A DNA stretch of 64,000 nt, taken from positions 13,020,001 to 13,084,000 of the forward strand of contig OZ024741.1 of the NCBI GenBank assembly GCA_964016885.1, read 5' to 3'. The first letter of the stretch is position 1. Every line of letters starts with the position of its first letter. The notes beneath the pieces are model-generated. The model saw nothing but the letters and a program-made list of their open reading frames with translations, did not search any database and was not told the origin of the DNA. Shown here in pieces: positions 1 through 64,000 of the stretch. The stretch is from Eledone cirrhosa (lineage: Eukaryota). A program made the position numbers and the translations under genes.

Positions 1-3000
1 CAGTGTCTCGACAACTAACATCTGATGTAGGTAGTTTGTTTCATGGAGGTTTTAAAGGATGCAGTGTCTCGACAGTTAACAACTGATGTAGGTAGTTTGT
101 TCCATGGAGCTTTTAAAGGATGCAGTGTTGGGACAGCTAACAGCTGATGCAGGTAGTTTGTTCCATGGAGGTTTTAAAGGATGCAGTGTCCAGACAACTA
201 TCAACTAATGTTGGTAGTTTGTTCCATGGAGGTTTTAAAGGATGCAATGTCCCGACAGCTAACAACTGATGCAGCTAGTTTGTTCCATGGAGGTTTTAAA
301 GGATGCAATGTCCCGACAGCTAACAACTGATGCAGGTAGTTTGTTCCATATAGGTTTTAAAGGATGCTGTGTCTCGACAGCTAACAACTGATGTAGGTAG
401 TTTGTTCCAGGGAGGTTTTAAAGGATGCAGTGTCCCGACAGCTAACAACTGATGCAGGTAGTTTGTTCCATGGAGGGTTTAAAGGATGCTGTGTCTCGAC
501 AGCTAACAACTAATGTAGGTAGTTTGTTCCATGGAGGTTTTAAAGGATGCAGTGTCCCGACAGCTAACATCTGATGTAGGTAGTTTGTTCCATGGAGGTT
601 TTAAAGGATGCAGTGTCTCGACAGCTAACAACTAATGTAGGTAGTTTGTTCCATGGAAGTTTTAAAGGATGCTGTGTCTCGACAGCTAACAACTAATGTA
701 GGTAGTTTGTTCCATGGAGGTTTTAAAGGATGCAGTGTCCCGACAGCCCACATCTGATGTAGGTAGTTTGTTCCATGGAGGTTTTAAAGGATGCAGTGTC
801 TCGACAGCTAACAACTGATGCAGGTAGTTTGTTCCATGGAGGGTTTAAAGGATGCAGTGTCTCGACAGCTAACAACTGATGTAGGTAGTTTGTTCCAGGG
901 AGGTTTTAAAGGATGCAGTGTCCCGACAGCTAACAACTGCTGCAGATACTTTGTTCCATGGAGGTTTTAAAGGATGCAGTGTCTCGACAGCTAACAACTG
1001 ATGCAGGTAGTTTGTTCCATGGAGGTTTTAAAGGATGCAGTGTCTCGACAGCTAACAACTGATGCAGGTAGTTTGTTCCATGGAGGTTTTAAAGGATGCA
1101 GTGTCTCGACAGCTAACAACTGATGCAGGTAGTTTGTTCCATTGATGTTTTAAAGGATGCAGTGTCTCAACAGCTAACAACTGATGTAAGTAGTTTGTTC
1201 CATGGAGGTTTTAAAGGATGCTGTGTACCGACATCTAACAACTGATGAGGTAGTTTGTTCCATGGAGGTTTTAAAGGATGCTGTGTCTCGACAGCTAACA
1301 ACTAATGTAGGTAGTTTGTTCCATGAAGGTTTTAAAGGATGCAGTGTCCCGACAGCTAACATCTGATGTAGGTAGTTTGTTCCATGGAGGTTTTAAAGGA
1401 TGCAGTGTCTCGACAGCTAACAACTAATGTAGGTAGTTTGTTCCATGGAAGTTTTAAAGGATGCTGTGTCTCGACAGCTAACAACTAATGTACGTAGTTT
1501 GTTCCATGGAGGTTTTAAAGGATGCAGTGTCCCGACAGCCCACATCTGATGTAGGTAGTTTGTTCCATGGAGGTTTTAAAGGATGCAGTGTCTCGACAGC
1601 TATCAACTGATGCAGATAGTTTGTTTTATGGAGGTTTTAAAGAATGCAGTGTCTCGACAGCTAACAACTGATGCAGGTAGTTTGTTCCATGGCGGTTTTA
1701 AAGGATGCAGTGTCTTGACAGCTATCAACTAATGTAGGTAGTTTGTTTCATGGAGGTTTTAAAGGATGCAGTGTCCCGACAGCTAACAACTGAAGCAGGT
1801 AGTTTGTTCCGTTGAGGTTTTAAAGGATGCAGTGTCTCGACAACTAACATCTGATGTAGGTAGTTTGTTTCGTGGAGGTTTTAAAGGATGCAGTGTCTCG
1901 ACAGCTAACAACTGATGTAGGTAGTTTGTTCCATGGAGGTTTTAAAGGATGCAGTGTTCCGACAGTTAACAACTGATGCAGGTAGTTTGTTCCATGGAGG
2001 TTTTAAAGGATGCAGTGTCCCGACAGCTAACAACTAATGCAGGTAGTTTGTGCCATGGAGGTTTTAAAAAATGCTGTGTCCCGACAGCTAACAACTGATG
2101 CAGGTAGTTTGTTCCATGGAGGGTTTAAAGGATGCAGTGTCTCGACAGCTAACAACTGAAGTAGGTAGTTTGTTCCATGGAGGTTTTAAAGGATGCAGTG
2201 TCCCGACAGCTAACAACTGATGCAGATAGTTTGTTCCATGGAGGTTTTAAAGGATGCAGTGTCTCGACAGCTAACAACTGATGCAGGTAGTTTGTTCTAT
2301 GGAGGTTTTAAAGGATGCAGTGTCTCGACAGCTAACAACTGATGCAGGTAGTTTGTTCCATGGAGGTTTTAAAGGATGCAGTGTCTCGACAGCTAACAAC
2401 TGATGCAGGTAGTTTGCTCCATTGATGTTTTAAAGGATGCAGTGTCTCAACAGCTAACAACTGATGCAGGTAGTTTGTTCCATGGACGTTTTAAAGGATG
2501 CAGTGTCTCGACAGCTAACAAGTAATGTAGGTAGTTTGTTCCATGGAGGTTTTAAAGGATGCAGTGTCCCGACAACTAACATCTGATGTAGGTAGTTTGT
2601 TCCATGGAGGTTTTAAAGGATGCAGTGTCTCGACAGCTAACAACTGATGCAGATAGTTTGTTCCATGGAGGTTTTAAAGAATGCAGTGTCTCGACAGCTA
2701 ACAACTGATGCAGGTAGTTTGTTCCATGGCGGTTTTAAAGGATGCAGTGTCTTGACAGCTAACAACTAATGTAGGTAGTTTGTTTCATGGAGGTTTTAAA
2801 GGATGCAGTGTCCCGACAGCTAACAACTGAAGCAGATAGTTTGTTCCATGGAGGTTTTAAAGGATGCAGTGTCTCGACAACTAACATCTGATGTAGGTAG
2901 TTTGTTTCATGGAGGTTTTAAAGGATGCAGTGTCTCGACAGTTAACAACTGATGTAGGTAGTTTGTTCCATGGAGGTTTTAAAGGATGCAGTGTTGCGAC

Positions 3001-6000
3001 AGCTAACAACTGATGCAGGTAGTTTGTTCCATGGAGGTTTTAAAGGATGCAGTGTCGCGACAACTAACAACTAATGTTGGTAGTTTGTTCCATGGAGGTT
3101 TTAAAGGATGCAATGTCCCGACAGCTAACAACTAATGCAGCTAGTTTGTTCCATGGAGGTTTTAAAGGATGCTGTGTCTCGACAGCTAACAACTGATGCA
3201 GGTAGTTTGTTCCATATAGGTTTTAAAGGATGCTGTATCTCGACAGTTAACAACTGATGTAGGTAGTTTGTTCCATGGAGGTTTTAAAGGATGCAGTGTC
3301 CCGACAGCTAACAACTGATGCAGGTAGTTTGTTCCATTGAGGTTTTAAAGGATGCAGTGTCTCGACAGCTAACAACTAATGTAGGTAGTTTGTTCCATGG
3401 AGGTTTTAAAGGATGCAGTGTCCCGACCGCCCACATCTGATGTAGGTAGTTTGTTCCATGGAGGTTTTAAAGGATGCAGTGTCTCGACAGCTAACAACTG
3501 ATGCAGATAGTTTGTTTCATGGAGGTTTTAAAGAATGCAGTGTCTCGACAGCTAACAACTGATGCAGGTAGTTTGTTCCATGGCGGTTTTAAAGGATTCA
3601 GTGTCTTGAGAGCTATCAACTAATGTAGGTAGTTTGTTTCATGGAGGTTTTAAAGGATGCAGTGTCCCGACAGCTAACAACTGAAGCAGGTAGTTTGTTC
3701 CATGGAGGTTTTAAAGGATGCAGTGTCTCGACAACTAACATCTGATGTAGGTAGTTTGTTTCGTGGAGGTTTTAAAGGATGCAGTGTCTCGACAGCTAAC
3801 AACTGATGTAGGTAGTTTGTTCCATGGAGGTTTTAAAGGATGCAGTGTTCCGACAGTTAACAACTGATGCAGGTAGTTTGTTCCATGGAGGTTTTAAAGG
3901 ATGCTGTGTCTTTTAAGCAAACAACTGATGTAGGTAGTTTGTTCCAGGGAGGTTTTAAAGGATGCAGTGTCCCGACAGCTAACAACTGATGCAGATAGTT
4001 TGTTCCATGGAGGTTTTAAAGGATGCAGTGTCTCGACAGCTAACAACTGATGCAGGTAGTTTGTTCTATGGAGGTTTTAAAGGATGCAGTGTCTCGACAG
4101 CTAACAACTGATGCAGGTAGTTTGTTCCATGGAAGTTTTAAAGGATGCTGTGTCTCGACAGCTAACAACTAATGTAGGTAGTTTGTTCCATGGAGGTTTT
4201 AAAGGATGCAGTGTCCCGACAGCTAACAACTAATGCAGGTAGTTTGTGCCATGGCGGTTTTAAAGGATGCAATGTCCCGACAGCTAACAACTAATGCAGC
4301 TAGTTTGTTCCATGGAGGTTTTAAAGGATGCTGTGTCTCGACAGCTAACAACTGATGTAGGTAGTTTGTTCCAGGGAGGTTTTAAAGGATGCAGTGTCCC
4401 GACAGCTAACAACTGATACAGATAGTTTGTTCCATGGAGGTTTTAAAGGATGCAGTGTCTCGACAGCTAACAACTGATGCAGGTAGTTTGTTCTATGGAG
4501 GTTTTAAAGGATGCAGTGTCTCGACAGCTAACAACTGATGCAAGTAGTTTGTTCCATGGAAGTTTTAAAGGATGCTGTGTCTCGACAGCTAACAACTAAT
4601 GTAGGTAGTTTGTTCCATGGAGGTTTTAAAGGATGCAGTGTCTCGACAGCTAACAACTAATATAGGTAGTTTGTTCCATGGAGGTTTTAAAGGAGGCAGT
4701 GTCCCGACAGCTAACATCTGATGTAGGTAGTTTGTTCCATGGAGGTTTTAAAGGATGCAGTGTCCCGACAGCTAACAACTGATGCAGATAGTTTGTTCCA
4801 TGGAGGTTTTAAAGAATGCAGTGTCTCGACAGCTAACAACTGATGCAGGCAGTTTGTTCCATGGAGGTTTTAAAGAATGCAGTGTTTCGACAGCTAACAA
4901 CTGATGCAGATAGTTTGTTCCATGGAGGTTTTAAAGAATGCAGTGTCTCGACAGCTAACAACTGATGCAGGTAGTTTGTTCCATGGCGGTTTTAAAGGAT
5001 GCAGTGTCTTGACAGCTAACAACTAATGTAGGTAGTTTGTTTCATGGAGGTTTTAAAGGATGCAGTGTCCCGACAGCTAACAACTGAAGCAGGTAGTTTG
5101 TTCCATGGAGATTTTAAAGGATGCAGTGTCTCGACAACTAACATCTGATGTAGGTAGTTTGTTTCATGGAGGTTTTAAAGGATGCAGTGTCTCGACAGTT
5201 AACAACTGATGCAGATAGTTTGTTCCATGGAGGTTTTAAAGAATGCAGTGTCCCGACAACTAACAACTAATGTTGGTAGTTTGTTCCTTGGAGGTTTTAA
5301 AGGATGCAATGTCCCGCCAGCTAACAACTGAAGCAGGTAGTTTGTTCCATGGAGGTTTTAAAGGATGCAGTGTCCCGACAACTAACAACTAATGTTGGTA
5401 GTTTGTTCCATGGAGGTTTTAAAGGATGCAATGTCCCGACAGCTAACAACTAATGCAGCTAGTTTGTTCCATGGAGGTTTTAAAGGATGCTGTGTCTCGA
5501 CAGCTAACAACTGATGCATGTAGTTTGTTCCATATAGGTTTTAAAGGATGCTGTATCTCGACAGCTAATAACTCATGCAGGTAGTTTGTTCCATGGAGGT
5601 TTTAACGGATGCAGTGTCTCGACAGCTAATAACTGATGCAGGTTTTTTAAAGATGCAGTGTCCCGACAGCTAACAACTGATGCAGGTAGTTTGTTCCATT
5701 GAGGTTTTAAAGGATGCAGTGTCTCGACAGCTAACAACTAATGTAGGTAGTTTGTTCCATGGAGGTTTTAAAGGATGCAGTGTCCCGACAGCCCACATCT
5801 GATGTAGGTAGTTTGTTCCATGGAGGTTTTAAAGGATGCAGTGTCTCGACAGCTAACAACTGATGCAGATAGTTTGTTTCATGGAGGTTTTAAAGAATGC
5901 AGTGTCTCGACAGCTAACAACTGATGCAGGTAGTTTGTTCCATGGCGGTTTTAAAGGATGCAGTGTCTTGACAGCTATCAACTAATGTAGGTAGTTTGTT

Positions 6001-9000
6001 TCATGGAGGTTTTAAAGGATGCAGTGTCCCGACAGCTAACAACTGAAGCAGGAAGTTTGTTCCATGGAGGTTTTAAAGGATGCAGTGTCTCGACAACTAA
6101 CATCTGATGTAGGTAGTTTGTTTCGTGGAGGTTTTAAAGGATGCAGTGTCTCGACAGCTAACAACTGATGTAGGTAGTTTGTTCCATGGAGGTTTTAAAG
6201 GATGCAGTGTTCCGACAGTTAACAACTGATGCAGGTAGTTTGTTCCATGGAGGTTTTAAAGGATGCAATGTCCCGACAGCTAACAACTAATGCAGGTAGT
6301 TTGTGCCATGGAGGTTTTAAAGGATGCAGTGTCCCGACAGCTAACAACTGATGCAGATAGTTTGTTCCATGGAGGTTTTAAAGGATGCAGTGTCTCGACA
6401 GCTAACAACTGATGTAGGTAGTTTGTTCTATGGAGGTTTTAAAGGATGCAGTGTCTCGACAGCTAACAACTGATGCAGGTAGTTTGTTCCATGGAGGTTT
6501 TAAAGGATGCAGTGTCTCGACAGCTAACAACTGATGCAGGTAGTTTGTTCCATTGATGTTTTAAAGGATGCAGTGTCTCAACAGCTAACAACTGATGTAA
6601 GTAGTTTGTTCCATGGAGGTTTTAAAGGATGCAGTGTCTCGACAGCTAACAACTGATGCAGATAGTTTGTTCCATGGGGGTTTTAAAGGATGCAGTGTCT
6701 CGACATCTAACAACTGATGAGGTAGTTTGTTCCATGGAAGTTTTAAAGGATGCTGTGTCTCGACAGCTAACAACTAATGTAGGTAGTTTGTTCCATGGAG
6801 GTTTTAAAGGATGCAGTGTCTCGACAGCTAACAACTAATGTAGGTAGTTTGTTCCATGGAGGTTTTAAAGGATGCAGTGTCCCGACAGCTAACATCTGAT
6901 GTAGGTAGTTTGTTCCATGGAGGTTTTAAAGGATGCAGTGTCTCGACAGCTAACAACTGATGCAGATAGTTTGTTCCATGGAGGTTTTAAAGAATGCAGT
7001 GTCTCGACAGCTAACAACTGATGCAGGTAGTTTGTTCCATGGCGGTTTTAAAGGATGCAGTGTCTTGACAGCTAACAACTAATGTAGGTAGTTTGTTTCA
7101 TGGAGGTTTTAAAGGATGCAGTGTCCCGACAGCTAACAACTGAAGCAGGTAGTTTGTTCCATGGAGATTTTAAAGGATGCAGTGTCTCGATAACTAACAT
7201 CTGATGTAGGTAGTTTGTTTCATGGAGGTTTTAAAGGATGCAGTGTCTCGACAGTTAACAACTGATGCAGATAGTTTGTTCCATGGAGGTTTTAAAGAAT
7301 GCAGTGTCCCGACAACTAACAACTAATGTTGGTAGTTTGTTCCTTGGAGGTTTTAAAGGATGCAATGTCCCGCCAGCTAACAACTGAAGCAGGTAGTTTG
7401 TTCCATGGAGGTTTTAAAGGATGCAGTGTCCCGACAACTAACAACTAATGTTGGTAGTTTGTTCCATGGAGGTTTTAAAGGATGCAATGTCCCGACAGCT
7501 AACAACTAATGCAGCTAGTTTGTTCCATGGAGGTTTTAAAGGATGCTGTGTCTCGACAGCTAACAACTGATGCATGTAGTTTGTTCCATATAGGTTTTAA
7601 AGGATGCTGTATCTCGACAGCTAATAACTCATGCAGGTAGTTTGTTCCATGGAGGTTTTAACGGATGCAGTGTCTCGACAGCTAATAACTGATGCAGGTT
7701 TTTTAAAGATGCAGTGTCCCGACAGCTAACAACTGATGCAGGTAGTTTGTTCCATTGAGGTTTTAAAGGATGCAGTGTCTCGACAGCTAACAACTAATGT
7801 AGGTAGTTTGTTCCATGGAGGTTTTAAAGGATGCAGTGTCCCGACAGCCCACATCTGATGTAGGTAGTTTGTTCCATGGAGGTTTTAAAGGATGCAGTGT
7901 CTCGACAGCTAACAACTGATGCAGATAGTTTGTTTCATGGAGGTTTTAAAGAATGCAGTGTCTCGACAGCTAACAACTGATGCAGGTAGTTTGTTCCATG
8001 GCGGTTTTAAAGGATGCAGTGTCTTGACAGCTATCAACTAATGTAGGTAGTTTGTTTCATGGAGGTTTTAAAGGATGCAGTGTCCCGACAGCTAACAACT
8101 GAAGCAGGAAGTTTGTTCCATGGAGGTTTTAAAGGATGCAGTGTCTCGACAACTAACATCTGATGTAGGTAGTTTGTTTCGTGGAGGTTTTAAAGGATGC
8201 AGTGTCTCGACAGCTAACAACTGATGTAGGTAGTTTGTTCCATGGAGGTTTTAAAGGATGCAGTGTTCCGACAGTTAACAACTGATGCAGGTAGTTTGTT
8301 CCATGGAGGTTTTAAAGGATGCAATGTCCCGACAGCTAACAACTAATGCAGGTAGTTTGTGCCATGGAGGTTTTAAAGGATGCAGTGTCCCGACAGCTAA
8401 CAACTGATGCAGATAGTTTGTTCCATGGAGGTTTTAAAGGATGCAGTGTCTCGACAGCTAACAACTGATGTAGGTAGTTTGTTCTATGGAGGTTTTAAAG
8501 GATGCAGTGTCTCGACAGCTAACAACTGATGCAGGTAGTTTGTTCCATGGAGGTTTTAAAGGATGCAGTGTCTCGACAGCTAACAACTGATGCAGGTAGT
8601 TTGTTCCATTGATGTTTTAAAGGATGCAGTGTCTCAACAGCTAACAACTGATGTAAGTAGTTTGTTCCATGGAGGTTTTAAAGGATGCAGTGTCTCGACA
8701 GCTAACAACTGATGCAGATAGTTTGTTCCATGGGGGTTTTAAAGGATGCAGTGTCTCGACATCTAACAACTGATGAGGTAGTTTGTTCCATGGAAGTTTT
8801 AAAGGATGCTGTGTCTCGACAGCTAACAACTAATGTAGGTAGTTTGTTCCATGGAGGTTTTAAAGGATGCAGTGTCTCGACAGCTAACAACTAATGTAGG
8901 TAGTTTGTTCCATGGAGGTTTTAAAGGATGCAGTGTCCCGACAGCTAACATCTGATGTAGGTAGTTTGTTCCATGGAGGTTTTAAAGGATGCAGTGTCTC

Positions 9001-12000
9001 GACAGCTAACAACTGATGCAGATAGTTTGTTCCATGGAGGTTTTAAAGAATGCAGTGTCTCGACAGCTAACAACTGATGCAGGTAGTTTGTTCCATGGCG
9101 GTTTTAAAGGATGCAGTGTCTTGACAGCTAACAACTAATGTAGGTAGTTTGTTTCATGGAGGTTTTAAAGGATGCAGTGTCCCGACAGCTAACAACTGAA
9201 GCAGGTAGTTTGTTCCATGGAGGTTTTAAAGGATGCAGTGTCTCGACAACTAACATCTGATGTAGGTAGTTTGTTTCATGGAGGTTTTAAAGGATGCAGT
9301 GTCTCGACAGTTAACAACTGATGTAGGTAGTTTGTTTCATGGAGGTTTTAAAGGATGCAGTGTCTCGACAGTTAACAACTGATGTAGGTAGTTTGTTCCA
9401 TGGAGGTTTTAAAGGATGCAGTGTTGCGACAGCTAACAACTGATGCAGGTAGTTTGTTCCATGGAAGTTTTAAAGGATGCTGTGTCTCGACAGCTAACAA
9501 CTAATGTAGGTAGTTTGTTCCATGGCGGTTTTAAAGGATGCAGTGTCTTGACAGCTAACAACTAATGTAGGTAGTTTGTTTCATGGAGGTTTTAAAGGAT
9601 GCAGTGTCCCGACAGCTAACAACTGATGCAGATAGTTTGTTCCATGGAGGTTTTAAAGGATGCAGTGTCTCGACAGCTAACAACTGATGCAGGTAGTTTG
9701 TTCTATGGAGGTTTTAAAGGATGCAGTGTCTCGACAGCTAACAACTGATGCAGGTAGTTTGTTCCATGGAAGTTTTAAAGGATGCTGTGTCTCGACAGCT
9801 AACAACTAATGTAGGTAGTTTGTTCCATGGAGGTTTTAAAGGATGCAGTGTCCCGACAGCTAACAACTAATGCAGGTAGTTTGTGCCATGGCGGTTTTAA
9901 AGGATGCAATGTCCCGACAGCTAACAACTAATGCAGCTAGTTTATTCCATGGAGGTTTTAAAGGATGCTGTGTCTCGACAGCTAACAACTGATGTAGGTA
10001 GTTTGTTCCAGGGAGGTTTTAAAGGATGCAGTGTCCCGACAGCTAACAACTGATACAGATAGTTTGTTCCATGGAGGTTTTAAAGGATGCAGTGTCTCGA
10101 CAGCTAACAACTGATGCAGGTAGTTTGTTCTATGGAGGTTTTAAAGGATGCAGTGTCTCGACAGCTAACAACTGATGCAAGTAGTTTGTTCCATGGAAGT
10201 TTTAAAGGATGCTGTGTCTCGACAGCTAACAACTAATGTAGGTAGTTTGTTCCATGGAGGTTTTAAAGGATGCAGTGTCTCGACAGCTAACAACTAATGT
10301 AGGTAGTTTGTTCCATGGAGGTTTTAAAGGATGCAGTGTCCCGACAGCTAACATCTGATGTAGGTAGTTTGTTCCATGGAGGTTTTAAATGATGCAGTGT
10401 CCCGACAGCTAACAACTGAAGCAGGTAGTTTGTTCCATGGAGGTTTTAAAGGATGCAGTGTCTCGACAACTAACATCTGATGTAGGTAGTTTGTTTCATG
10501 GAGGTTTTAAAGGATGCAGTGTCTCGACAGTTAACAACTGATGTAGGTAGTTTGTTTCATGGAGGTTTTAAAGGATGCAGTGTCTCGACAGTTAACAACT
10601 GATGTAGGTAGTTTGTTCCATGGAGGTTTTAAAGGATGCAGTGTTGCGACAGCTAACAACTGATGCAGGTAGTTTGTTCCATGGAAGTTTTAAAGGATGC
10701 TGTGTCTCGACAGCTAACAACTAATGTAGGTAGTTTGTTCCATGGCGGTTTTAAAGGATGCAGTGTCTTGACAGCTAACAACTAATGTAGGTAGTTTGTT
10801 TCATGGAGGTTTTAAAGGATGCAGTGTCCCGACAGCTAACAACTGATGCAGATAGTTTGTTCCATGGAGGTTTTAAAGGATGCAGTGTCTCGACAGCTAA
10901 CAACTGATGCAGGTAGTTTGTTCTATGGAGGTTTTAAAGGATGCAGTGTCTCGACAGCTAACAACTGATGCAGGTAGTTTGTTCCATGGAAGTTTTAAAG
11001 GATGCTGTGTCTCGACAGCTAACAACTAATGTAGGTAGTTTGTTCCATGGAGGTTTTAAAGGATGCAGTGTCCCGACAGCTAACAACTAATGCAGGTAGT
11101 TTGTGCCATGGCGGTTTTAAAGGATGCAATGTCCCGACAGCTAACAACTAATGCAGCTAGTTTGTTCCATGGAGGTTTTAAAGGATGCTGTGTCTCGACA
11201 GCTAACAACTGATGTAGGTAGTTTGTTCCAGGGAGGTTTTAAAGGATGCAGTGTCCCGACAGCTAACAACTGATACAGATAGTTTGTTCCATGGAGGTTT
11301 TAAAGGATGCAGTGTCTCGACAGCTAACAACTGATGCAGGTAGTTTGTTCTATGGAGGTTTTAAAGGATGCAGTGTCTCGACAGCTAACAACTGATGCAA
11401 GTAGTTTGTTCCATGGAAGTTTTAAAGGATGCTGTGTCTCGACAGCTAACAACTAATGTAGGTAGTTTGTTCCATGGAGGTTTTAAAGGATGCAGTGTCT
11501 CGACAGCTAACAACTAATGTAGGTAGTTTGTTCCATGGAGGTTTTAAAGGATGCAGTGTCCCGACAGCTAACATCTGATGTAGGTAGTTTGTTCCATGGA
11601 GGTTTTAAAGGATGCAGTGTCCCGACAGCTAACAACTGATGCAGATAGTTTGTTCCATGGAGGTTTTAAAGAATGCAGTGTCTCGACAGCTAACAACTGA
11701 TGCAGGCAGTTTGTTCCATGGAGGTTTTAAAGAATGCAGTGTCTCGACAGCTAACAACTGATGCAGATAGTTTGTTCCATGGAGGTTTTAAAGAATGCAG
11801 TGTCTCGACAGCTAACAACTGATGCAGGTAGTTTGTTCCATGGCGGTTTTAAAGGATGCAGTGTCTTGACAGCTAACAACTAATGTAGGTAGTTTGTTTC
11901 ATGGAGGTTTTAAAGGATGCAGTGTCCCGACAGCTAACAACTGAAGCAGGTAGTTTGTTCCATGGAGATTTTAAAGGATGCAGTGTCTCGACAACTAACA

Positions 12001-15000
12001 TCTGATGTAGGTAGTTTGTTTCATGGAGGTTTTAAAGGATGCAGTGTCTCGACAGTTAACAACTGATGCAGATAGTTTGTTCCATGGAGGTTTTAAAGAA
12101 TGCAGTGTCCCGACAACTAACAACTAATGTTGGTAGTTTGTTCCTTGGAGGTTTTAAAGGATGCAATGTCCCGCCAGCTAACAACTGAAGCAGGTAGTTT
12201 GTTCCATGGAGGTTTTAAAGGATGCAGTGTCCCGACAACTAACAACTAATGTTGGTAGTTTGTTCCATGGAGGTTTTAAAGGATGCAATGTCCCGACAGC
12301 TAACAACTAATGCAGCTAGTTTGTTCCATGGAGGTTTTAAAGGATGCTGTGTCTCGACAGCTAACAACTGATGCATGTAGTTTGTTCCATATAGGTTTTA
12401 AAGGATGCTGTATCTCGACAGCTAATAACTGATGCAGGTAGTTTGTTCCATGGAGGTTTTAACGGATGCAGTGTCTCGACAGCTAATAACTGATGCAGGT
12501 TTTTTAAAGATGCAGTGTCCCGACAGCTAACAACTGATGCAGGTAGTTTGTTCCATTGAGGTTTTAAAGGATGCAGTGTCTCGACAGCTAACAACTAATG
12601 TAGGTAGTTTGTTCCATGGAGGTTTTAAAGGATGCAGTGTCCCGACAGCCCACATCTGATGTAGGTAGTTTGTTCCATGGAGGTTTTAAAGGATGCAGTG
12701 TCTCGACAGCTAACAACTGATGCAGATAGTTTGTTTCATGGAGGTTTTAAAGAATGCAGTGTCTCGACAGCTAACAACTGATGCAGGTAGTTTGTTCCAT
12801 GGCGGTTTTAAAGGATGCAGTGTCTTGACAGCTATCAACTAATGTAGGTAGTTTGTTTCATGGAGGTTTTAAAGGATGCAGTGTCCCGACAGCTAACAAC
12901 TGAAGCAGGAAGTTTGTTCCATGGAGGTTTTAAAGGATGCAGTGTCTCGACAACTAACATCTGATGTAGGTAGTTTGTTTCGTGGAGGTTTTAAAGGATG
13001 CAGTGTCTCGACAGCTAACAACTGATGTAGGTAGTTTGTTCCATGGAGGTTTTAAAGGATGCAGTGTTCCGACAGTTAACAACTGATGCAGGTAGTTTGT
13101 TCCATGGAGGTTTTAAAGGATGCAATGTCCCGACAGCTAACAACTAATGCAGGTAGTTTGTGCCATGGAGGTTTTAAAGGATGCAGTGTCCCGACAGCTA
13201 ACAACTGATGCAGATAGTTTGTTCCATGGAGGTTTTAAAGGATGCAGTGTCTCGACAGCTAACAACTGATGCAGGTAGTTTGTTCTATGGAGGTTTTAAA
13301 GGATGCAGTGTATCGACAGCTAACAACTGATGCAGGTAGTTTGTTCCATGGAGGTTTTAAAGGATGCAGTGTCTCGACAGCTAACAACTGATGCAGGTAG
13401 TTTGTTCCATTGATGTTTTAAAGGATGCAGTGTCTCAACAGCTAACAACTGATGTAAGTAGTTTGTTCCATGGAGGTTTTAAAGGATGCAGTGTCTCGAC
13501 AGCTAACAACTGATGCAGATAGTTTGTTCCATGGGGGTTTTAAAGGATGCAGTGTCTCGACATCTAACAACTGATGAGGTAGTTTGTTCCATGGAAGTTT
13601 TAAAGGATGCTGTGTCTCGACAGCTAACAACTAATGTAGGTAGTTTGTTCCATGGAGGTTTTAAAGGATGCAGTGTCTCGACAGCTAACAACTAATGTAG
13701 GTAGTTTGTTCCATGGAGGTTTTAAAGGATGCAGTGTCCCGACAGCTAACATCTGATGTAGGTAGTTTGTTCCATGGAGGTTTTAAAGGATGCAGTGTCT
13801 CGACAGCTAACAACTGATGCAGATAGTTTGTTCCATGGAGGTTTTAAAGAATGCAGTGTCTCGACAGCTAACAACTGATGCAGGTAGTTTGTTCCATGGC
13901 GGTTTTAAAGGATGCAGTGTCTTGACAGCTAACAACTAATGTAGGTAGTTTGTTTCATGGAGGTTTTAAAGGATGCAGTGTCCCGACAGCTAACAACTGA
14001 AGCAGGTAGTTTGTTCCATGGAGGTTTTAAAGGATGCAGTGTCTCGACAACTAACATCTGATGTAGGTAGTTTGTTTCATGGAGGTTTTAAAGGATGCAG
14101 TGTCTCGACAGTTAACAACTGATGTAGGTAGTTTGTTTCATGGAGGTTTTAAAGGATGCAGTGTCTCGACAGTTAACAACTGATGTAGGTAGTTTGTTCC
14201 ATGGAGGTTTTAAAGGATGCAGTGTTGCGACAGCTAACAACTGATGCAGGTAGTTTGTTCCATGGAGGTTTTAAAGGATGCAGTGTCCCGACAACTAACA
14301 ACTAATATTGGTAGTTTGTTCCATGGAGGTTTTAAAGGATGCAATGTCCCGACAGCTAACAACTAATGCAGCTAGTTTGTTCCATGGAGGTTTTAAAGGA
14401 TGCTGTGTCTCGACAGCTAACAACTGATGCAGGTAGTTTGTTCCATGGAGGTTTTAACGGATGCAGTGTCCCGACAGCTAACAACTGATGCAGGTAGTTT
14501 GTTCCATGGAGGTTTTAAAGGATGCAGTGTCTCGACAGCTAACAACTAATGTAGGTAGTTTGTTCCATGGAGGTTTTAAAGGATGCAGTGTCCCGACAGC
14601 TAACATCTGATGTAGGTAGTTTGTTCCATGGAGGTTTTAAAGGATGCAGTGTCCCGACAGCTAACAACTGATGCAGATAGTTTGTTCCATGGAGGTTTTA
14701 AAGAATGCAGTGTCTCGACAGCTAACAACTGATGCAGGCAGTTTGTTCCATGGAGGTTTTAAAGAATGCAGTGTCTCGACAGCTAACAACTGATGCAGAT
14801 AGTTTGTTCCATGGAGGTTTTAAAGAATGCAGTGTCTCGACAGCTAACAACTGATGCAGGTAGTTTGTTCCATGGCGGTTTTAAAGGATGCAGTGTCTTG
14901 ACAGCTAACAACTAATGTAGGTAGTTTGTTTCATGGAGGTTTTAAAGGATGCAGTGTCCCGACAGCTAACAACTGAAGCAGGTAGTTTGTTCCATGGAGA

Positions 15001-55830: not shown

Positions 55831-56155
55831 AGGGTGGATTGGCAGTATCGGTAGAGGGTCGGACGCCATGTTAGGGTGGTGGATTGGCAGTATCGGTAGA
55901 GGGTCGGACGCCATGCTAGGGTGGTGGATTGGCAGTATCGGTAGAGGGTCGGACGCCATGCTAGGGTGGTGGATTGGCAGTATCGGTAGAGGGTCGGACG
56001 CCATGCTTTCTAGCATAGTTACGTGCTTTTACAGTCTGAGTTCAAATCCCGCCGAGGTTAACTTTGCCTTTCATCCTTACGGGGTCGATAAAATAAAGTA
56101 CCAGTAATGTACTGGGTAATTGCTGGCCTTGTGCCTAAAGTAGAAACAATTATTT
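55831..56155 (+). mobile_element. tRNA-derived SINE with its 45-bp head repeated four times
   Basis: GGGTGGTGGATTGGCAGTATCGGTAGAGGGTCGGACGCCATGCTA x4 (the 15-aa repeat in ORF 55868), then a single B box, core and tail. Confidence 0.9.
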
Positions 56156-57651: not shown

Positions 57652-57980
57652 TCAGAAAGCAGCACAGCTCCCATGACTTTCGGAAACATTTTTTCACGCT
57701 CAGAGTTGCTGAGGCATGGAACAAACTACCTGCATCAGTTGTTAGCTGTCGAGACACTGCATCCTTTAAAACCTCCATGGAACAAACTACCTTTAAAACC
57801 TCCATGCTTCCTGAGATTCGGCAACACTACACCTAATATTCCTTCTCCATACACACGCACACGTGTATATCATGACTCGTACACTATTCACTTTGTATAT
57901 TATTCTATGTACTATACATGCACCTTTGATGAGTTGTAGTGCACCTGAGCACTGTACACAATAATTTCATTATTATTATT
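57652..57980 (+). mobile_element. 5'-truncated CR1-type LINE 3' end carrying one satellite monomer plus a 27-bp partial duplication
   Basis: RKQHSSHDFRKHFFTLRVAEAWNKLPASVVSCRDTASFKTSM(EQTTFKTSM)LPEIRQHYT-stop at 57834; 3' UTR with AGTGC/GCACT stem-loop and (ATT)n tail. Confidence 0.88.
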
Positions 57981-59864
57981 CTTTGAGTCTCAGTCATTGA
58001 TGTTATTTAACTGGAAAGTTTGTTGAAATGAATATCAAGCCGCTACCTGCAGCCTCAGATATTCAGGACGTATCGGAGGGTTCTTGCTGTTTCCAGCAAG
58101 CATGCCTTTTGAAGTGTTCCAAAAAGCGGGGCTGGACTCATTTTCTTTAACCATCCTTGGAAACTCTTTCAGATAGTACCTAGTGCGCCTATGACAATCG
58201 GGACGATCTTGATTTCATGGCAGTTCCAAATACTTGTTAACTCCCACTTTAAGTCCTGGTATCGGTTAATTTTCTCCCTCTCCTTTTCTTGCACTCTCGT
58301 GTCAAATGGGCAGGCTACATCCACAATCAGGCACGATCTTTTTTCCTTGTCCAAAACCACCAGGTCAGGCCTATTGTGTTCCAGTTTCTTGTCCGTCTGT
58401 ATCCTAAAATCCCACAGCACCTTCACCTGATCGTTTTCTATCACCGACTTTGGCTTATGCTCATACCACTTCTCAGAATGTGGTAAATTGTTTACTTTGC
58501 ATAGGTGCCAGTGGATCACCCTGTCCATCACATCATATCTCCAGCCTTTATAGTGAGTCTGGGCTAGGTGTTTACACTCGGATACAATGTGGGCCACAGT
58601 CTCCTCTCTCTCTCTCTCCACAGATCCTACACAGTGGGCTAACCTCCTCCTTGTAAATATGGTGTTTCACCCACTTCGTTCTGAGGGCCTGCTCTTGCGC
58701 AGCCATTAGCATTCCTTCTGTAGCCTTTTTAAGGTCTCCTCTTTTTAACCAGTTCCAGGTCTGTGGATCTCTAAATTCAGTTTTCTCAAAGAAGGTAAAA
58801 TGAAGGGATTTTTCATGAAGGTTGCTCTTCCTCCTTGCTGTTGTTTCCTCCTTGGGCATCCCCTGGTCTATTGTCCTCTCCTTCAGTACAATTCGGAGCA
58901 TTGGCTCCCTACTGTCAGTCATTATTTGTGCAGGTTGTTTTTCTCCATCTGAACACAGTCCTTTATGCTGGTAAGACCTCTTCCACCTTCAGATCTCCTT
59001 AAGTAGAGTCTATCGACATCACTCCTCTTGTGGAACATGTTGTAGATAGTCAATAGCTTCCTAGTCTTCCTATCCATTTCTTTTTGTTCAGGAACATTCC
59101 ATCTCAGAATTCCCGCACTGTACCTAATAATAGACACAGCTCGGGAATTCACTGCACTTATGACATTCCTACTATTTAGATGTGATTTTAATACGCTCCT
59201 TACTCTCCGAATGTACTCAGATCTTATCAATTCCTTCATTTTTTTGTTCTTGATGTCATCTGCCTCTAGAACACCTAAATATTTGTATCCTTCTTCAGTG
59301 TCAATTTCCTTTATCATCTCACCTGTTGGTACCTGGATTCCGTTGCTTCTGCTCAGTTTACCCCTCTTCATCACTAGGACTCCACACTTATTAACACCAA
59401 ATTCCATACATATATCATTGTTGAAAATACGTACAGTGTCAACAAGTACACCCAACTCCTTCTCACTCTTCCCAAAGAGTTTAAGATCGTCCATGAAGAG
59501 TTGATGGTAAGCTCTCCTTTTCCAAACTTGTATCAATCTCACTTTTCGCAGTATAATGGTCGGGGGCATCAGGGCAAGGACAAATAACAGAGGGGACAAA
59601 CTATCTCCCTGGAAGATACTTCTCTTGATCTTCACGCCTCCCAAGGATTCTCCACCCGATGTTAACTCTATTTCCCAGGACTTCATACTTTTGTTCAACA
59701 ACTGTCTGATGTTATCTGCCACCTTGAAGATCTCTAAGCTTTTGGTTATCCAAGAATGAAGTACCATGTCGAATGCCTTTTTGTAATCTATCCATCCCAT
59801 GGCAAGACCAGTGTGTCTCCTCTTTCAATTCCTCATTACCATTTTATCAATAAAGTAACTGGTT
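57981..59864 (-). pseudogene. Decayed 5'-truncated R4/Dong-clade non-LTR retrotransposon (RT, CCHC, restriction-like endonuclease)
   Basis: WIDYKKAFD, IFQGDSLSPLLF, FMDDLKL, YKYLG, CRICGE..ETVAHIVSEC, RPDLVV..IVDVACP, VPIVIGALG, LQKACLLETARTLR. Several stops and frameshifts; the apparent natural stop is at 58055. Confidence 0.88.
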
Positions 59865-60047
59865 ATTGTGAATTGGCAGTATCGGTAGAGGGTTGGACGC
59901 CATGCTTTCTAGCATAATTACGTCCCTTTACGGTCTGAATTCAAATCCCGCCGAGGTTAACTTTGCCTTTCATCCTTACGGGGTCGATAAAATAAAGTAC
60001 CAGTAATGTACTGGGTAATTGCTGGCCTTGTGCCAATAGTAGAAACA

Positions 60048-60080
<33 letters not shown>
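59865..60080 (+). mobile_element. tRNA-derived SINE with long (ATT)n tail
   Basis: Same family motifs; about 11 ATT units. Confidence 0.9.
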
Positions 60081-60288
60081 GGCGACCTACGTAGTAAATC
60101 GTATCATCGTGAGCTCCGCAAAGGTTTGTTATTTCCGTTTGTTAAAAATTGCCATTTATGGAAAATTTTATTGTTAACAGTTTATAAGCACGCATACATT
60201 GTTTTCCGAAAAGGACACCCAAAAAGATTGGGGCCTTGTGCCCAAAATTTTAACTTTTATTATTATCCAAAAATTTCTTTGAAGAAAA

Positions 60289-62192
60289 ATGGCTAATTCC
60301 CCTCTGCACGAAGCAGCTGAAAGCCTTCCTCACAAAATAACACCTCACACCGACACCACCATTGTAAATGTTACTACGTTTGCCAACACAAAAAAAAATA
60401 TAAGCAGTAGCAATATTTTAAATTTGTCTCAGGCAGACATTCATTTCCCGCCATTACCAATGACTGCAGGTGTTAAAGCCTCCACCACCACCACCACCGC
60501 GACAACCACCACCCCCACCACCACCGAGACAACAGAAACAAAAGAAGAGAAAAATAAATTAACTCGTGATGTCGAAATGAAATCAAGCAAAATGAACTCT
60601 TCCGCACCAAAGACGACTGACGTCACCACCACCACAACTGAAACTAAAATTAATATTAACACAAATAACGATAGCAACAACAACAACAATGACATTATAA
60701 AACCGACCCTCAGTTTCGCCATAGTAGCAAAACAATTCGAAGCATTCACGGTAACTCAAGAGGATTTAGAAAATGCCAAACAAATGGTAAAGAAAGATGG
60801 GTACAGGGTCAGCCTCACCCCCCACCCCCACCCCCACCTAATAAAATGGAGCATCGGCGCCTATGCACCGTGTCGTATAGAACAATAAATGTAAAATCGC
60901 GCCGAGTGGAACGGGCATCCGAGTCCCAAATCCAAAAAGCTTTGGGACATGTGTGGGCAAGAAAAACCCACATCAGACGTGGGCAAAAGTATGGAACCGT
61001 GGATATGTTCTTTGAAACACCAGAGGAGGCTAGAGAACACTCCATGGCCCCATTAAAAAGTGACGACTTCACACTCATCCCAAGCTATTGTGGCCAGAGA
61101 CTCGTAAAGATCAGGGTGACCCACGTTCCACCGGCCATCGAAATTCCCTGGCTAATAGCGGCTGTCCTCGCCGGCATCGAAGCCAACACGAAAATAATAG
61201 CAATAGCAAAAGAAAAGCAGGAAAACTGGTCCGGATCTGGGATGGAGCTCCTGATCCAAGCGGACCAAAAAAGCATTGAGGAGATCCCAGAGGTAATAGA
61301 CCCCACTGACGGCAGCCACCTCACGGTAATTGTCGAGGGCAGAAGACCTAGGTGTGTCGTTTGTGGTGAAGGAACCCACCTAAGGGCTTTCTGCCCTCAG
61401 GCTAAAAGGTTGAGGCCACCTCTCCTACCCACCCCAGTGACACAACCATCAACACCACCAGTAGCAGAGATGGCAGCAACAACTGTATCAGCAATAACAG
61501 AAGAAACTATAACAGCAACAACCCTAGCAACAGTAGCAAAACCAACACCACCACCACCCAACGCTTCAGAACTAGCACCAGCGCCTACACCATCCACCAC
61601 ACCACAACCAAAACTAACGGCTGTGGAGAATTTTCCACTCCCTGGCCTATCACAACTGGAGACAGATTGTGACGACGAGGAGTGGGAAACGGTATCCGGA
61701 AAAAAAAAAAGAAACCAAAAAAGAAAAAATTCTCTTCCTTCCCCCTCCAAAAACAAAATACAGAGGGAAACAAATAAACTAAGAAACAAAAAAGTTAGGA
61801 CAGATATGCCACCATCCACACCAGCATCACCAACCCCATCAACCCAAACACCAACACCATCACCATCATTAACTCCAACACCACCATCACCTACACCACA
61901 AAAGTCACCAAAATGCGAAACAGAAACAAACCCACAACAAACGCAAACAAAACAAAACAACCAAAACGATACACACTACACAGCATTAAATTTGAACAAC
62001 AAGCAATTATTACACTACATCCAACACAACACCAGCATCACAGAAAAAGACTACACAACAACCCCAAAATTCACACCACCTCCACACATACAAATCACTC
62101 GCATCACACAGAAAACGCACATGACACTAAAACAAAAAATTCCCCAAAGACATCGGAGACTTCCGACAAGCACTCTCCAGGAGGATTTATAA
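60289..62192 (+). CDS. Tx1-type ORF1 (gag-like nucleic-acid-binding protein), split by one frameshift in a C-rich run near 60820-60840
   Basis: ORFs 60289-60888 and 60846-62192 both align with the single ORF1 at 50510-51742; CVVCGEGTHLRAFC knuckle. Confidence 0.8.
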
Positions 62193-62302
62193 GGACATCC
62201 TTCCTGAGGAGGCCACAAACAGTGAAAAGGATGGAAAAACCGTCCTTCCCCTACGAGAAGTAAGGTAAGTGGTCTTTCCCATCTTTTCCACTCCTTTTCA
62301 AC

Positions 62303-64000
62303 ATGACCTCACTCAGAATAGGCAGCATAAATGCGCGTGGCTTGGGGTCGTCATGGAAGCAGGGCCACCTGCTCAACGACCTCAGGTCACTAAACATAGA
62401 TGTAGTGGCCATCAGCGAGACCAGAATCTCCGAAGCACAGGCTTTCGCACCGATCTTCGGCGGCTACGATGTGTACGCATCGCCCAGCCGTCCGGGATCG
62501 GGGGGAGGAGTTCCTGTGCTTTTTAGGAGAGGTTTGGATCTTGCCATACGGGCCATCTTCCTGGACCCAGAAGGTAAGTTGGTGGTGCTGGACGTGACCA
62601 GCGGAGACGGGCAAGCTTTCAGGTTAGTGGCCGTCTATGCCCCGACAGGAGCAGGGCTGCCTGATTTCTTCCGGCGTCTGGAGACCTTTCTTGGAACGTC
62701 CCGCTCTTTAGTGTTAGTGGGCGACTGGAACGGGATCTTAGATGCACGCTGGGATTGTGTGGGATTAGTGTATAGGGAAGGAGGGTGCAATAGTCTCACC
62801 AACCTGCTCAGACGTTTTGAACTGTCTGACAGGTACCGAATGGATTTCCCGAATGTACCAATGTGGACTTGGACAAATCGCATAGGGTCATCCAGATCAT
62901 ATCTAGATAGAGTATTTTGTAGGGAAATAGATAGGTCTAGCATAGGCTGTCCACAATTCAAGATAGTCAGCTACACGGACCACAAATTCGTGATCTGTGT
63001 GCTTGACTTAGATAGGCTTCATAGACGAGGACCCGGCTACTGGAAGCTAAACGCGTCCTTACCAGCGCGCAAGGCCTACAGAGACCGGATTAGCGAACTA
63101 GTTAAGCGGGCGTTGACGGGGGCCATCGTCAACAACAAGTGGTGGTTTGCTCTGAAAAGAGCAATTAGAATAGAGTCCATTAGGTTTAGTAAGACTTTAG
63201 CAATAGAGAAAAATAGAGCAGAGGGAGAATTAGTTAGAAAATTAGATGAGGCGCTTAGCAAAGGAATCGCGACCGACGTACTTGCGGCGAAATTGGCCCT
63301 TGACCAATTCTTCAATGCAAAGCACGAAGGCTGCGTTGTCAGAGCTAGGGTGCGTGCTCTCAGACACGAGGGGACGAAAGCCGTTCAATGGGCCCGAGTG
63401 GCGGAGGCGCGTCGTGGCAACAAAGCCACGATCCGGGCTTTGGTGGACCACGACGGGCGCATGCTACTCGATCCCGGGCAAATGTGTGAAGCTTTTCAGC
63501 GACAATTCGCTCAACTGTTCGGGGGCAGTGGCGGGCCGGATCGAGGGATGGACTTTAGTGTCTACCTCGACGGACTGCCGCGGCTTTCGGCCACTGAGGC
63601 GGAGTGTTGCGAAAAGCCGATAACAACCGCTGAAGTACGGGATGCAATGACTAGTTGCACAAGGGGTAAATTGCCTGGTTTGGATGGTCTGCCCTATGAA
63701 CTTTACGTACAAATGCCAAACTTGTTCGGAGGCCTCTTGGCGGACGTCTACTGCAACTGGCAACAGAACGGGAGATTTCCCAGCTCTGTGAGCCGAGGAG
63801 CGGTGGCGCTGCTGAGAAAGGATCCGAACAAGGGGGATAACATAGATAATTTTAGGCCTATAACTCTGCTAAACACAGAGTTCAAGATTTTGGCCAAGGT
63901 GCTAGCAAAGAGGTTGGCGCTTGTCGTTGGTGGTCTGGTGGGAGAGGCACAGACATGCGCCATTCCCGACAGATCCATCCACGACAACCTCCACCTCATG
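62303..64000 (+). CDS. Tx1-type ORF2 (AP endonuclease and start of reverse transcriptase), 566 codons to the window edge
   Basis: MTSLRIGSINARGL, ISET, VYAP, GDWN, WTW, SYLDR, TDH, YWKLN, PGLDGLPYELY, NFRPITLLNTEFKILAK and QTCAIPDRSIHDN all fall in one frame. Absent from the ORF track, presumably because it has no stop inside the window. Confidence 0.93.
   Translation, partial: MTSLRIGSINARGLGSSWKQGHLLNDLRSLNIDVVAISETRISEAQAFAPIFGGYDVYASPSRPGSGGGVPVLFRRGLDLAIRAIFLDPEGKLVVLDVTSGDGQAFRLVAVYAPTGAGLPDFFRRLETFLGTSRSLVLVGDWNGILDARWDCVGLVYREGGCNSLTNLLRRFELSDRYRMDFPNVPMWTWTNRIGSSRSYLDRVFCREIDRSSIGCPQFKIVSYTDHKFVICVLDLDRLHRRGPGYWKLNASLPARKAYRDRISELVKRALTGAIVNNKWWFALKRAIRIESIRFSKTLAIEKNRAEGELVRKLDEALSKGIATDVLAAKLALDQFFNAKHEGCVVRARVRALRHEGTKAVQWARVAEARRGNKATIRALVDHDGRMLLDPGQMCEAFQRQFAQLFGGSGGPDRGMDFSVYLDGLPRLSATEAECCEKPITTAEVRDAMTSCTRGKLPGLDGLPYELYVQMPNLFGGLLADVYCNWQQNGRFPSSVSRGAVALLRKDPNKGDNIDNFRPITLLNTEFKILAKVLAKRLALVVGGLVGEAQTCAIPDRSIHDNLHLM

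Follow-up and report, generated by a model that had tools for sequence, protein, structure and literature searches.

A 1.44-unit LINE relic in Eledone cirrhosa is a minor member of a large LINE-derived satellite spread and likely gained its junction after insertion

Interlocus conversion or the reinsertion of circles has been proposed to explain how satellites arrive at new loci, an event that is rarely caught. In the available text of Sproul et al. (2020, PMC7403614), Rsp-like repeats of the Drosophila simulans clade entered clusters of the 1.688 satellite: a junction born at microhomology, once or a few times, used its homology to a dispersed and abundant sequence to spread, with interlocus gene conversion or the reinsertion of circles as the routes proposed there, and then expanded locally. 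The landing pad in that case is another satellite, with tens of clusters. As far as the accessible part of Vondrak et al. (2020, PMC7004042) goes, short arrays in an untranslated region are already part of the dispersed Ogre retrotransposons of Lathyrus sativus and move with them, and these internal arrays expand in one chromosomal zone only, near the centromeres. The maize repeats CRM1TR and CRM4TR were formed from a segment of a retrotransposon, in this case LTR elements, and have unit ends converted from a sister subfamily; the portion of Sharma et al. (2013, PMC3648361) at hand ascribes their growth to non-allelic gene conversion, at three centromeric loci with little movement between them. 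Finally, chicken HinfI (CR1), the cetacean common satellite (L1) and Phodopus PROsat derive from LINE ORF2 or 3' ends, and in the section of the review used here (PMC9659126) they are known by the similarity of the mature satellite to the LINE.

Here we compare with these systems a LINE copy at positions 57652-57980 of a 64,000-nucleotide stretch of Eledone cirrhosa DNA, called the window (C2:13020001-13084000 of a 3.0-Gb assembly). The features of this copy, and of a large array in the same window, are as follows.

57652..57714, + strand: 3' part of the ORF2 of a 5'-truncated LINE, starting after a (TA)n run
57711..57720, + strand: left arm of an inverted repeat, 10 bp, centred on the first CATG, perfect in the native copy L105
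57715..57775, + strand: full 61-bp unit, the native ORF2 segment of the LINE, identical to the commonest satellite unit
57774..57781, strand not assigned (.): satellite-type junction, with the second CATG at the centre of a palindrome of 8 bp, identified by sequence and exact 21-mer matches
57776..57802, + strand: partial 27-bp unit, joined at a 3-bp CCT microhomology (57790-57792)
57801..57810, + strand: right arm of the inverted repeat, 10 bp, centred on the exit CATG
57803..57836, + strand: native ORF2 end and stop codon
57837..57980, + strand: 3' UTR with a private 16-bp deletion, a small terminal stem-loop (57938-57953) and an (ATT)n tail
1..20464, - strand: window part of the big array, 61-bp unit, continuing to C2:12966401
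20465..20556, - strand: flank of a separately inserted, 5'-truncated LINE, opening the big array

The motif CATG occurs at 57715, 57776 and 57803 (and further at 57672, 57871 and 57917), and the intervals are 61 bp and then 27 bp, the second copy lacking 34 bp between two CCT motifs, for a total of 1.44 units. On these points the sequence matches the preliminary description of the locus, which also had the ORF end resume in frame after the 27-bp copy, as it indeed does (...FKTS MLPEIRQHYT*). The frame through the repeat, ...FKTS MEQTT FKTS MLPEIRQHYT*, is nevertheless meaningless, because the copy is a 329-bp 5'-truncated relic. Its left inverted-repeat arm carries one private change, at 57713. 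The 27-bp unit has two matches in the 3.0 Gb, this copy and C20:13153254 (reversed control 0), and is no chance occurrence; it is the last unit at both loci, the one on C20 being a 7-unit array. The C20 twin was considered as a sister of this copy and rejected, since 3' UTR distance (10 of 164 bases differ, rank 42 of 179) and the tree indicate separate insertions; the nearest 3' UTRs, with 5 of 164 differences, are those of ordinary copies. The raw reads of two other samples contain the 61-bp junction (1,127 and 1,239 reads). Among the read-contig pieces listed, none spans the 27-bp junction; one at single-copy depth, with this copy's private base, covers 57791-57842 and thus begins beyond it.

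The big array totals 74,058 bp, or about 1,214 units head-to-tail, and is contained in a single other LINE copy, which has a 5' flank of its own; at its exit the array passes into the native end of the ORF, followed by the 3' UTR and the (ATT)n tail. Its last unit is full, and a search for the 27-bp unit within it gave none. As had been stated earlier, the 57652-57980 copy is dispersed from this array and in opposite orientation, the 5' flank of the array's LINE being about 37 kb off. Because flanks, 5' truncation and 3' UTR (12 of 157 aligned bases, plus 3 gaps) all differ, the copy is not a duplicate of the big array's locus, an origin against which the preliminary description had weighed its own reading; the array's host was likewise rejected as a sister from the 3' UTR comparison and the tree. 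The copy lies 13 Mb from the chromosome end and has an array on either side, at distances of 37 kb and 53 kb, the latter array being of 38 units. An allele at 57659 (2-4%) that is common to this copy and the big array's host is a weak hint of import, too weak for naming a donor. Within the big array, a short unit of 44 bp is present 15 times and units of 60 bp are present 50 times, recurring at kilobase spacing, and a 183-bp period outscores that of 61, signs of large unequal exchanges.

Other repeats crowd this part of the window. A different, very abundant RT-bearing LINE (57981-59824, - strand), which we take to be RTE-like, sits tail to tail in the (ATT)n tail of the 57652-57980 copy and hides its 3' target site; the same arrangement at L016 suggests targeting of ATT repeats. 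It is followed by a SINE-like element of about 190 bp (59870-60080, + strand) that likewise has an (ATT)n end and is often found right inside the tails of the LINEs studied here (at the big array exit, L013, L020 and L028), and by a two-ORF LINE (60283-64000, + strand), presumably L1/Tx1-like, with an ORF1-like frame of 499 aa and an open endonuclease-RT frame of 579 aa that runs past the window edge. An (ACT)n array of 10.5 kb (23800-34305, about 3,500 units) precedes a (GGT)n array of 1.1 kb (34699-35791). Small tandem arrays have also formed from the 5' ends of SINE-like repeats (55833-56007, 45 bp x 3.9; 35879-36025, 29 bp x 5.1), so other dispersed repeats in this distal region form arrays too.

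The long relatives L299 and L306 match the Pfam families PF03372/PF14529 (endonuclease) and PF00078 (RT), the best solved relatives of the protein are L1 and R2 proteins, and no NCBIfam profile scored above its cut-off against it. The fetched copies have varied 5' ends and (ATT)n tails. Judged by its predicted domains and by its 5' truncation and tail, the element is a non-LTR retrotransposon (LINE) with an APE endonuclease, and we assume from its C-terminal motif a resemblance to the CR1/L2 group. Its 3' end has a stem-loop and a tail, the stem-loop fold scoring z -1.8 to -2.0 against shuffles. In the available text on UnaL2 (PMC1636434), a 3' stem-loop is followed by a short terminal repeat at which the L2-type RT slips. 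Mollusc LINEs include CR1, L2 and RTE-BovB in the part of a survey that we could use (PMC10294476), which does not fix the clade of the present element. Short tandem duplications of about 19-27 bp occur around the ORF2 end in L003, L018, L021, L024, L030 and L282, and L020 has a deletion between two CCTCCAT motifs.

Over the whole assembly, strict patterns detected 5,167 copies of the LINE end with one unit, 697 in which two or more full units stand at the exit, and 22,110 exact junction 21-mers, all of which are lower bounds (reversed controls 0), while a pattern search for zero-unit copies of the LINE end gave none. In 179 single copies, the native stretch of ORF2 matches the 61-bp satellite unit at every base, and the repeat is a transposon-derived satellite, its unit being a segment of the element and its arrays long and head-to-tail. 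The locus had been presented as a snapshot of the satellite's birth, a claim that cannot be kept for a junction that exists 22,110 times at no fewer than 697 loci. Among 90 of the first 100 arrays listed (the big array and nine on C3 were left out), we counted 21 dimers, 28 arrays with 3-9 units and 31 with 10-64, and 10 run past the fetched stretch at 26 or 92 units, so that their sizes are minima. The preliminary description had asked for many loci with rising monomer counts, and loci with 2, 3, 4 and up to more than 92 units indeed occur; the opposite outcome, in which all other copies would hold one monomer, does not agree with 697 copies of two units or more. A five-unit own-type array at L220-L222 (C4:99147000-99173000) is repeated five times in a tandem segmental repeat of 5-9 kb, and at L203 (C3:347105424-347111424) a 24-unit copy and a one-unit copy lie in opposite orientation at most 6 kb apart with a shared 3' UTR start, possibly as a donor-recipient or an inverted-duplication pair.

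One striking feature of these arrays is their position. Of the arrays on C1 and C2, 71 of 74 are no more than 40 Mb from a chromosome end; for single copies whose unit is identical, the figure is 13 of 65 (p 6e-22; the two search patterns differ in strictness). The dimers alone behave in the same way as the arrays at large (13 of 14, p 5e-7). Arrays are restricted to small chromosomes and to the end regions of the others, whereas single copies are spread evenly, and the repeats were therefore not made at insertion, contrary to the suggestion that reverse transcription was the step at which they arose. Arrays have the 5' flank of their own LINE on one side and its 3' end on the other, and they have grown after insertion. 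Among arrays less than 5 Mb apart, the sharing of unit variants is about double that of shuffled positions (p 0.014 and 0.003; 66 arrays), a modest signal. In the available part of a study of two octopus species (PMC13174406), recombination is higher towards the tips of large chromosomes, and by analogy the same enrichment may hold in the present genome.

The most informative arrays are those in which junction and host disagree. The last bases of the unit vary by LINE subfamily (AAAACCTC, AAAACCCT, AAGACACT or AAGGCCTC), and slippage within a copy must reproduce the junction type of its host; one RNA cannot supply a foreign junction that has host sequence on both sides. In 74 arrays, picked by a pattern designed for them, the last unit is of CCCT/GACACT type and is preceded by a AAAACCTC-type junction, with four substitutions crossed in 15 of them. 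Own-type CCCT/GACACT junctions number only 50 genome-wide, at about 16 loci, several of which are in foreign hosts. The CCCT/GACACT subfamilies account for 12 of 30 sampled single copies, and of 12 single copies with the 3' UTR of that clade, none ends in AAAACCTC. Thirty of the 74 arrays were fetched; 27 of the 29 that were placed on the tree fall in the host's well-supported 3' UTR clade, and 27 of the 29 with a visible first unit show host markers in it. Because both 3' UTR clade and first-unit markers are those of the host, the foreign piece lies inside host sequence on both sides, and a donor-type repeat between host-type sequences is what the Rsp-like model of spread, by interlocus conversion or circles, would predict. 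In L170, for example, a host half-unit is followed by three foreign units and a host unit, and reverse cases, GG-type hosts with GACACT junctions, occur on C12, C22 and C1247 with different flanks.

Inner units of the foreign-junction arrays carry host body markers in 96, 77 and 87 of 135 cases, compared with 3, 12 and 87 of 1,079 in ordinary arrays, and keep the host end in 11 of 135. Body markers kept and host end lost would mean either short, junction-only tracts or later conversion from a one-unit allele. An in-cis correction of 2 bases by the inverted repeat was also considered, by hand, as the source of foreign junctions; it fails for the four-substitution cases and for the GG/GACACT crosses.

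In the native element, each of the two CATGs lies at the centre of one arm of a perfect 10-bp inverted repeat, which is shortened to 8 bp in the CCCT/GACACT subfamilies. The coincidence of unit limits and inverted repeat involves six extra matched bases (about 1 in 4,000, calculated by hand) and suggests a role in the founding event. One longer inverted repeat is found elsewhere in the element, and the stability of the present one shows no gain over shuffles (z -0.64). As neither DNA folds (z +0.3 to +1.4) nor RNA folds of the unit and of the 57652-57980 copy are better than those of shuffles, there is no strong hairpin hotspot. CATG-to-CATG events are rare, because the zero-unit product is absent; the proposal that such slippage is a recurrent property of this LINE family thus meets 0 zero-unit against 5,167 one-unit copies, as well as junctions that often are not of the host's subfamily.

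The explanation that we favour starts from a junction that would have been born once or a few times, in a rare event at the 10-bp inverted repeat holding both CATGs. A broken end in a one-unit copy would then invade an array elsewhere, copy across the junction and return, leaving two or more units; the route may be ectopic conversion or a template switch, and reinsertion of an array-derived circle would be equivalent here. The arrays would subsequently be lengthened, from 2 to more than 1,200 units, and homogenised by unequal exchange and by conversion in which the sister, the homologue and neighbours take part. The 57652-57980 copy is, in this explanation, one of at least 697 dead LINE copies with a repeated ORF2 segment; it likely gained its junction after insertion, by repair synthesis off an array elsewhere, and its second unit likely ended at CCT, where the return or a later deletion would have left 1.44 units. 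Likely donors would be the 74-kb array (37 kb away), the 38-unit array (53 kb) or the locus on C20, which shares the 27-bp unit. Import is not demonstrable at 57652-57980 itself, where the unit is the plain consensus and the host is of the satellite's own type. A broader claim, which we regard as evenly balanced, is that one rare LINE junction became a contagious, enzyme-free mobile satellite that homes by recombination into dead copies of any subfamily, only where recombination is high; the ratio of arrays to single copies would then be a map of ectopic recombination.

At this locus alone, a different last step is conceivable, if clearly less probable: the copy could be the remnant of a dimer or longer array that lost at least 34 bp by a CCT-CCT deletion, or its 27-bp end could have been exchanged with C20 by conversion. 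The same 27-bp last unit does close the 7-unit array on C20, and one origin plus one conversion would explain why both 27-bp units are terminal. However, the 34-bp deletion, with 2 matches genome-wide, is absent from single copies and from inner units, and short units are rare inside arrays (1 of 1,114 intervals below 50 bp in the 90 arrays) compared with nine short last units genome-wide (27, 27, 33, 34, 34, 34, 34, 43 and 45 bp), to which L002 may be added. Most short last units are joined at CCT or at the 7-bp CTGCATC, and four of the nine are in one-unit hosts. Such a remnant or exchange is compatible with repair off an array and alters its last step alone.

For the satellite as a whole, it is unlikely that each array was instead born locally and independently after insertion, by DNA slippage or unequal exchange at CATG, spurred by the inverted repeat and by end-proximal breaks, with foreign junctions as later conversions between arrays. 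Local birth fits the positional and truncation tests equally well. It is also favoured by pure own-type arrays in four subfamilies (in the three besides the satellite's own type, these are L209b, L210, the C4 repeat, L264 and L277, with 724 GG-type junctions), by private alleles in all units of the single arrays L193, L097, L089 and L232, and by the scarcity of own-type junctions in the two subfamilies with the 8-bp inverted repeat. Yet slippage at a short direct repeat is expected to give deletions at least as frequently as duplications, and the genome holds no zero-unit copy. Moreover, the CCCT/GACACT hosts with foreign junctions (74 loci) far outnumber the own-type arrays (about 4 events), and these include dimers such as L229 and L232 that had no array for later conversion to act upon.

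Very improbable, and largely refuted, is a spread by retrotransposition of one or a few master LINEs that already contained a dimer or array, at the cost of no more than the last 9 residues of ORF2. The chimeric dimers of five GG-type hosts are similar in structure and the CTTAG flank variant is common among foreign-junction hosts, both of which would fit common descent from a master; but these five hosts lie on C12, C22 and one unplaced contig, in three 3' UTR sub-lineages, and 60 of 308 single copies of the CTTAG lineage, the main host lineage, are on C1 as opposed to 0 of 74 foreign-junction arrays (p 1e-6). In a 3' UTR tree of 180 copies (119 arrays and 61 singles, those without a readable UTR having been dropped), the array label changes 47 times against 51.4 in shuffles, 54 of 500 of which are as low, and well-supported branches force at least 10 changes. 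Array status is thus scattered over the subfamily tree and does not mark one subfamily, which bears out the expectation in the preliminary description that arrays would be found on independent branches. Only 5 of 80 complete arrays lack the LINE 5' flank, where the upstream truncation rate predicts 85-210 truncations inside arrays under reverse transcription, a crude expectation that counts every upstream end as a truncation; the near absence of 5' truncation inside arrays speaks against their having travelled by reverse transcription. Position, tree and truncation tests therefore show no element of the Ogre/Tetris type, carrying and transposing an internal array, and speak equally against the array-bearing subfamily that the preliminary description had offered as its alternative. 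Least probable of all is repeated CATG-to-CATG slippage of the LINE RT during insertion, which would agree with arrays on many branches, with the slippage reported for L2-type RT at its 3' terminal repeat in the available text (PMC1636434), with a 10-bp RNA stem that can bring both CATGs together and with the other small duplications near the 3' end (L003, L018, L021 and L024), but which is contradicted by distal dimers among evenly spread single copies, by the absence of the zero-unit product that a jump across a template stem should yield, and by the inability of one RNA to supply a foreign junction between host sequences.

Transposon-derived satellites are known, and the present case is best read as a variant in which the junction is passed among dead LINE copies, the 57652-57980 copy being a minor member of a large and well-labelled satellite spread. 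A literature search outside the subscription journals turned up neither this repeat nor any case of a junction that spreads from one LINE copy to another. At hundreds of recipient loci, the sequence to either side of the imported piece still shows the lineage of the locus, more than 5,000 unconverted copies serve as a control set, and all stages from 1 to 1,200 units are present, which makes donor, tract length, homology dependence and dependence on chromosome position directly countable. If the junction is indeed contagious, a large share of the end-proximal dead copies would have been turned into growing arrays.

The Ogre-derived satellites resemble the present one in that a dispersed retrotransposon has internal arrays expanding in one chromosomal zone only, but here, by comparison with the available text (PMC7004042), the transposing element has a single unit, which is coding sequence, and it is near chromosome ends that the arrays appear. 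CRM1TR and CRM4TR share the derivation from a retrotransposon segment, the unit ends converted between subfamilies and the proposed growth by conversion, as far as the text at hand goes (PMC3648361), whereas here hundreds of loci exchange. The reviewed LINE satellites have the same kind of source, yet a series of 1, 2, 3 ... 1,200 units inside intact LINE flanks is not described in the section of the review used (PMC9659126). Rsp-like, with its microhomology-born junction, few births and spread by homology, would be matched here in each of these respects. In comparison with the available account (PMC7403614), the landing pads in the present genome would be thousands of dead LINE copies, each with exactly one native unit, of which at least 697 would have been converted, and subfamily markers tell host from donor base by base.
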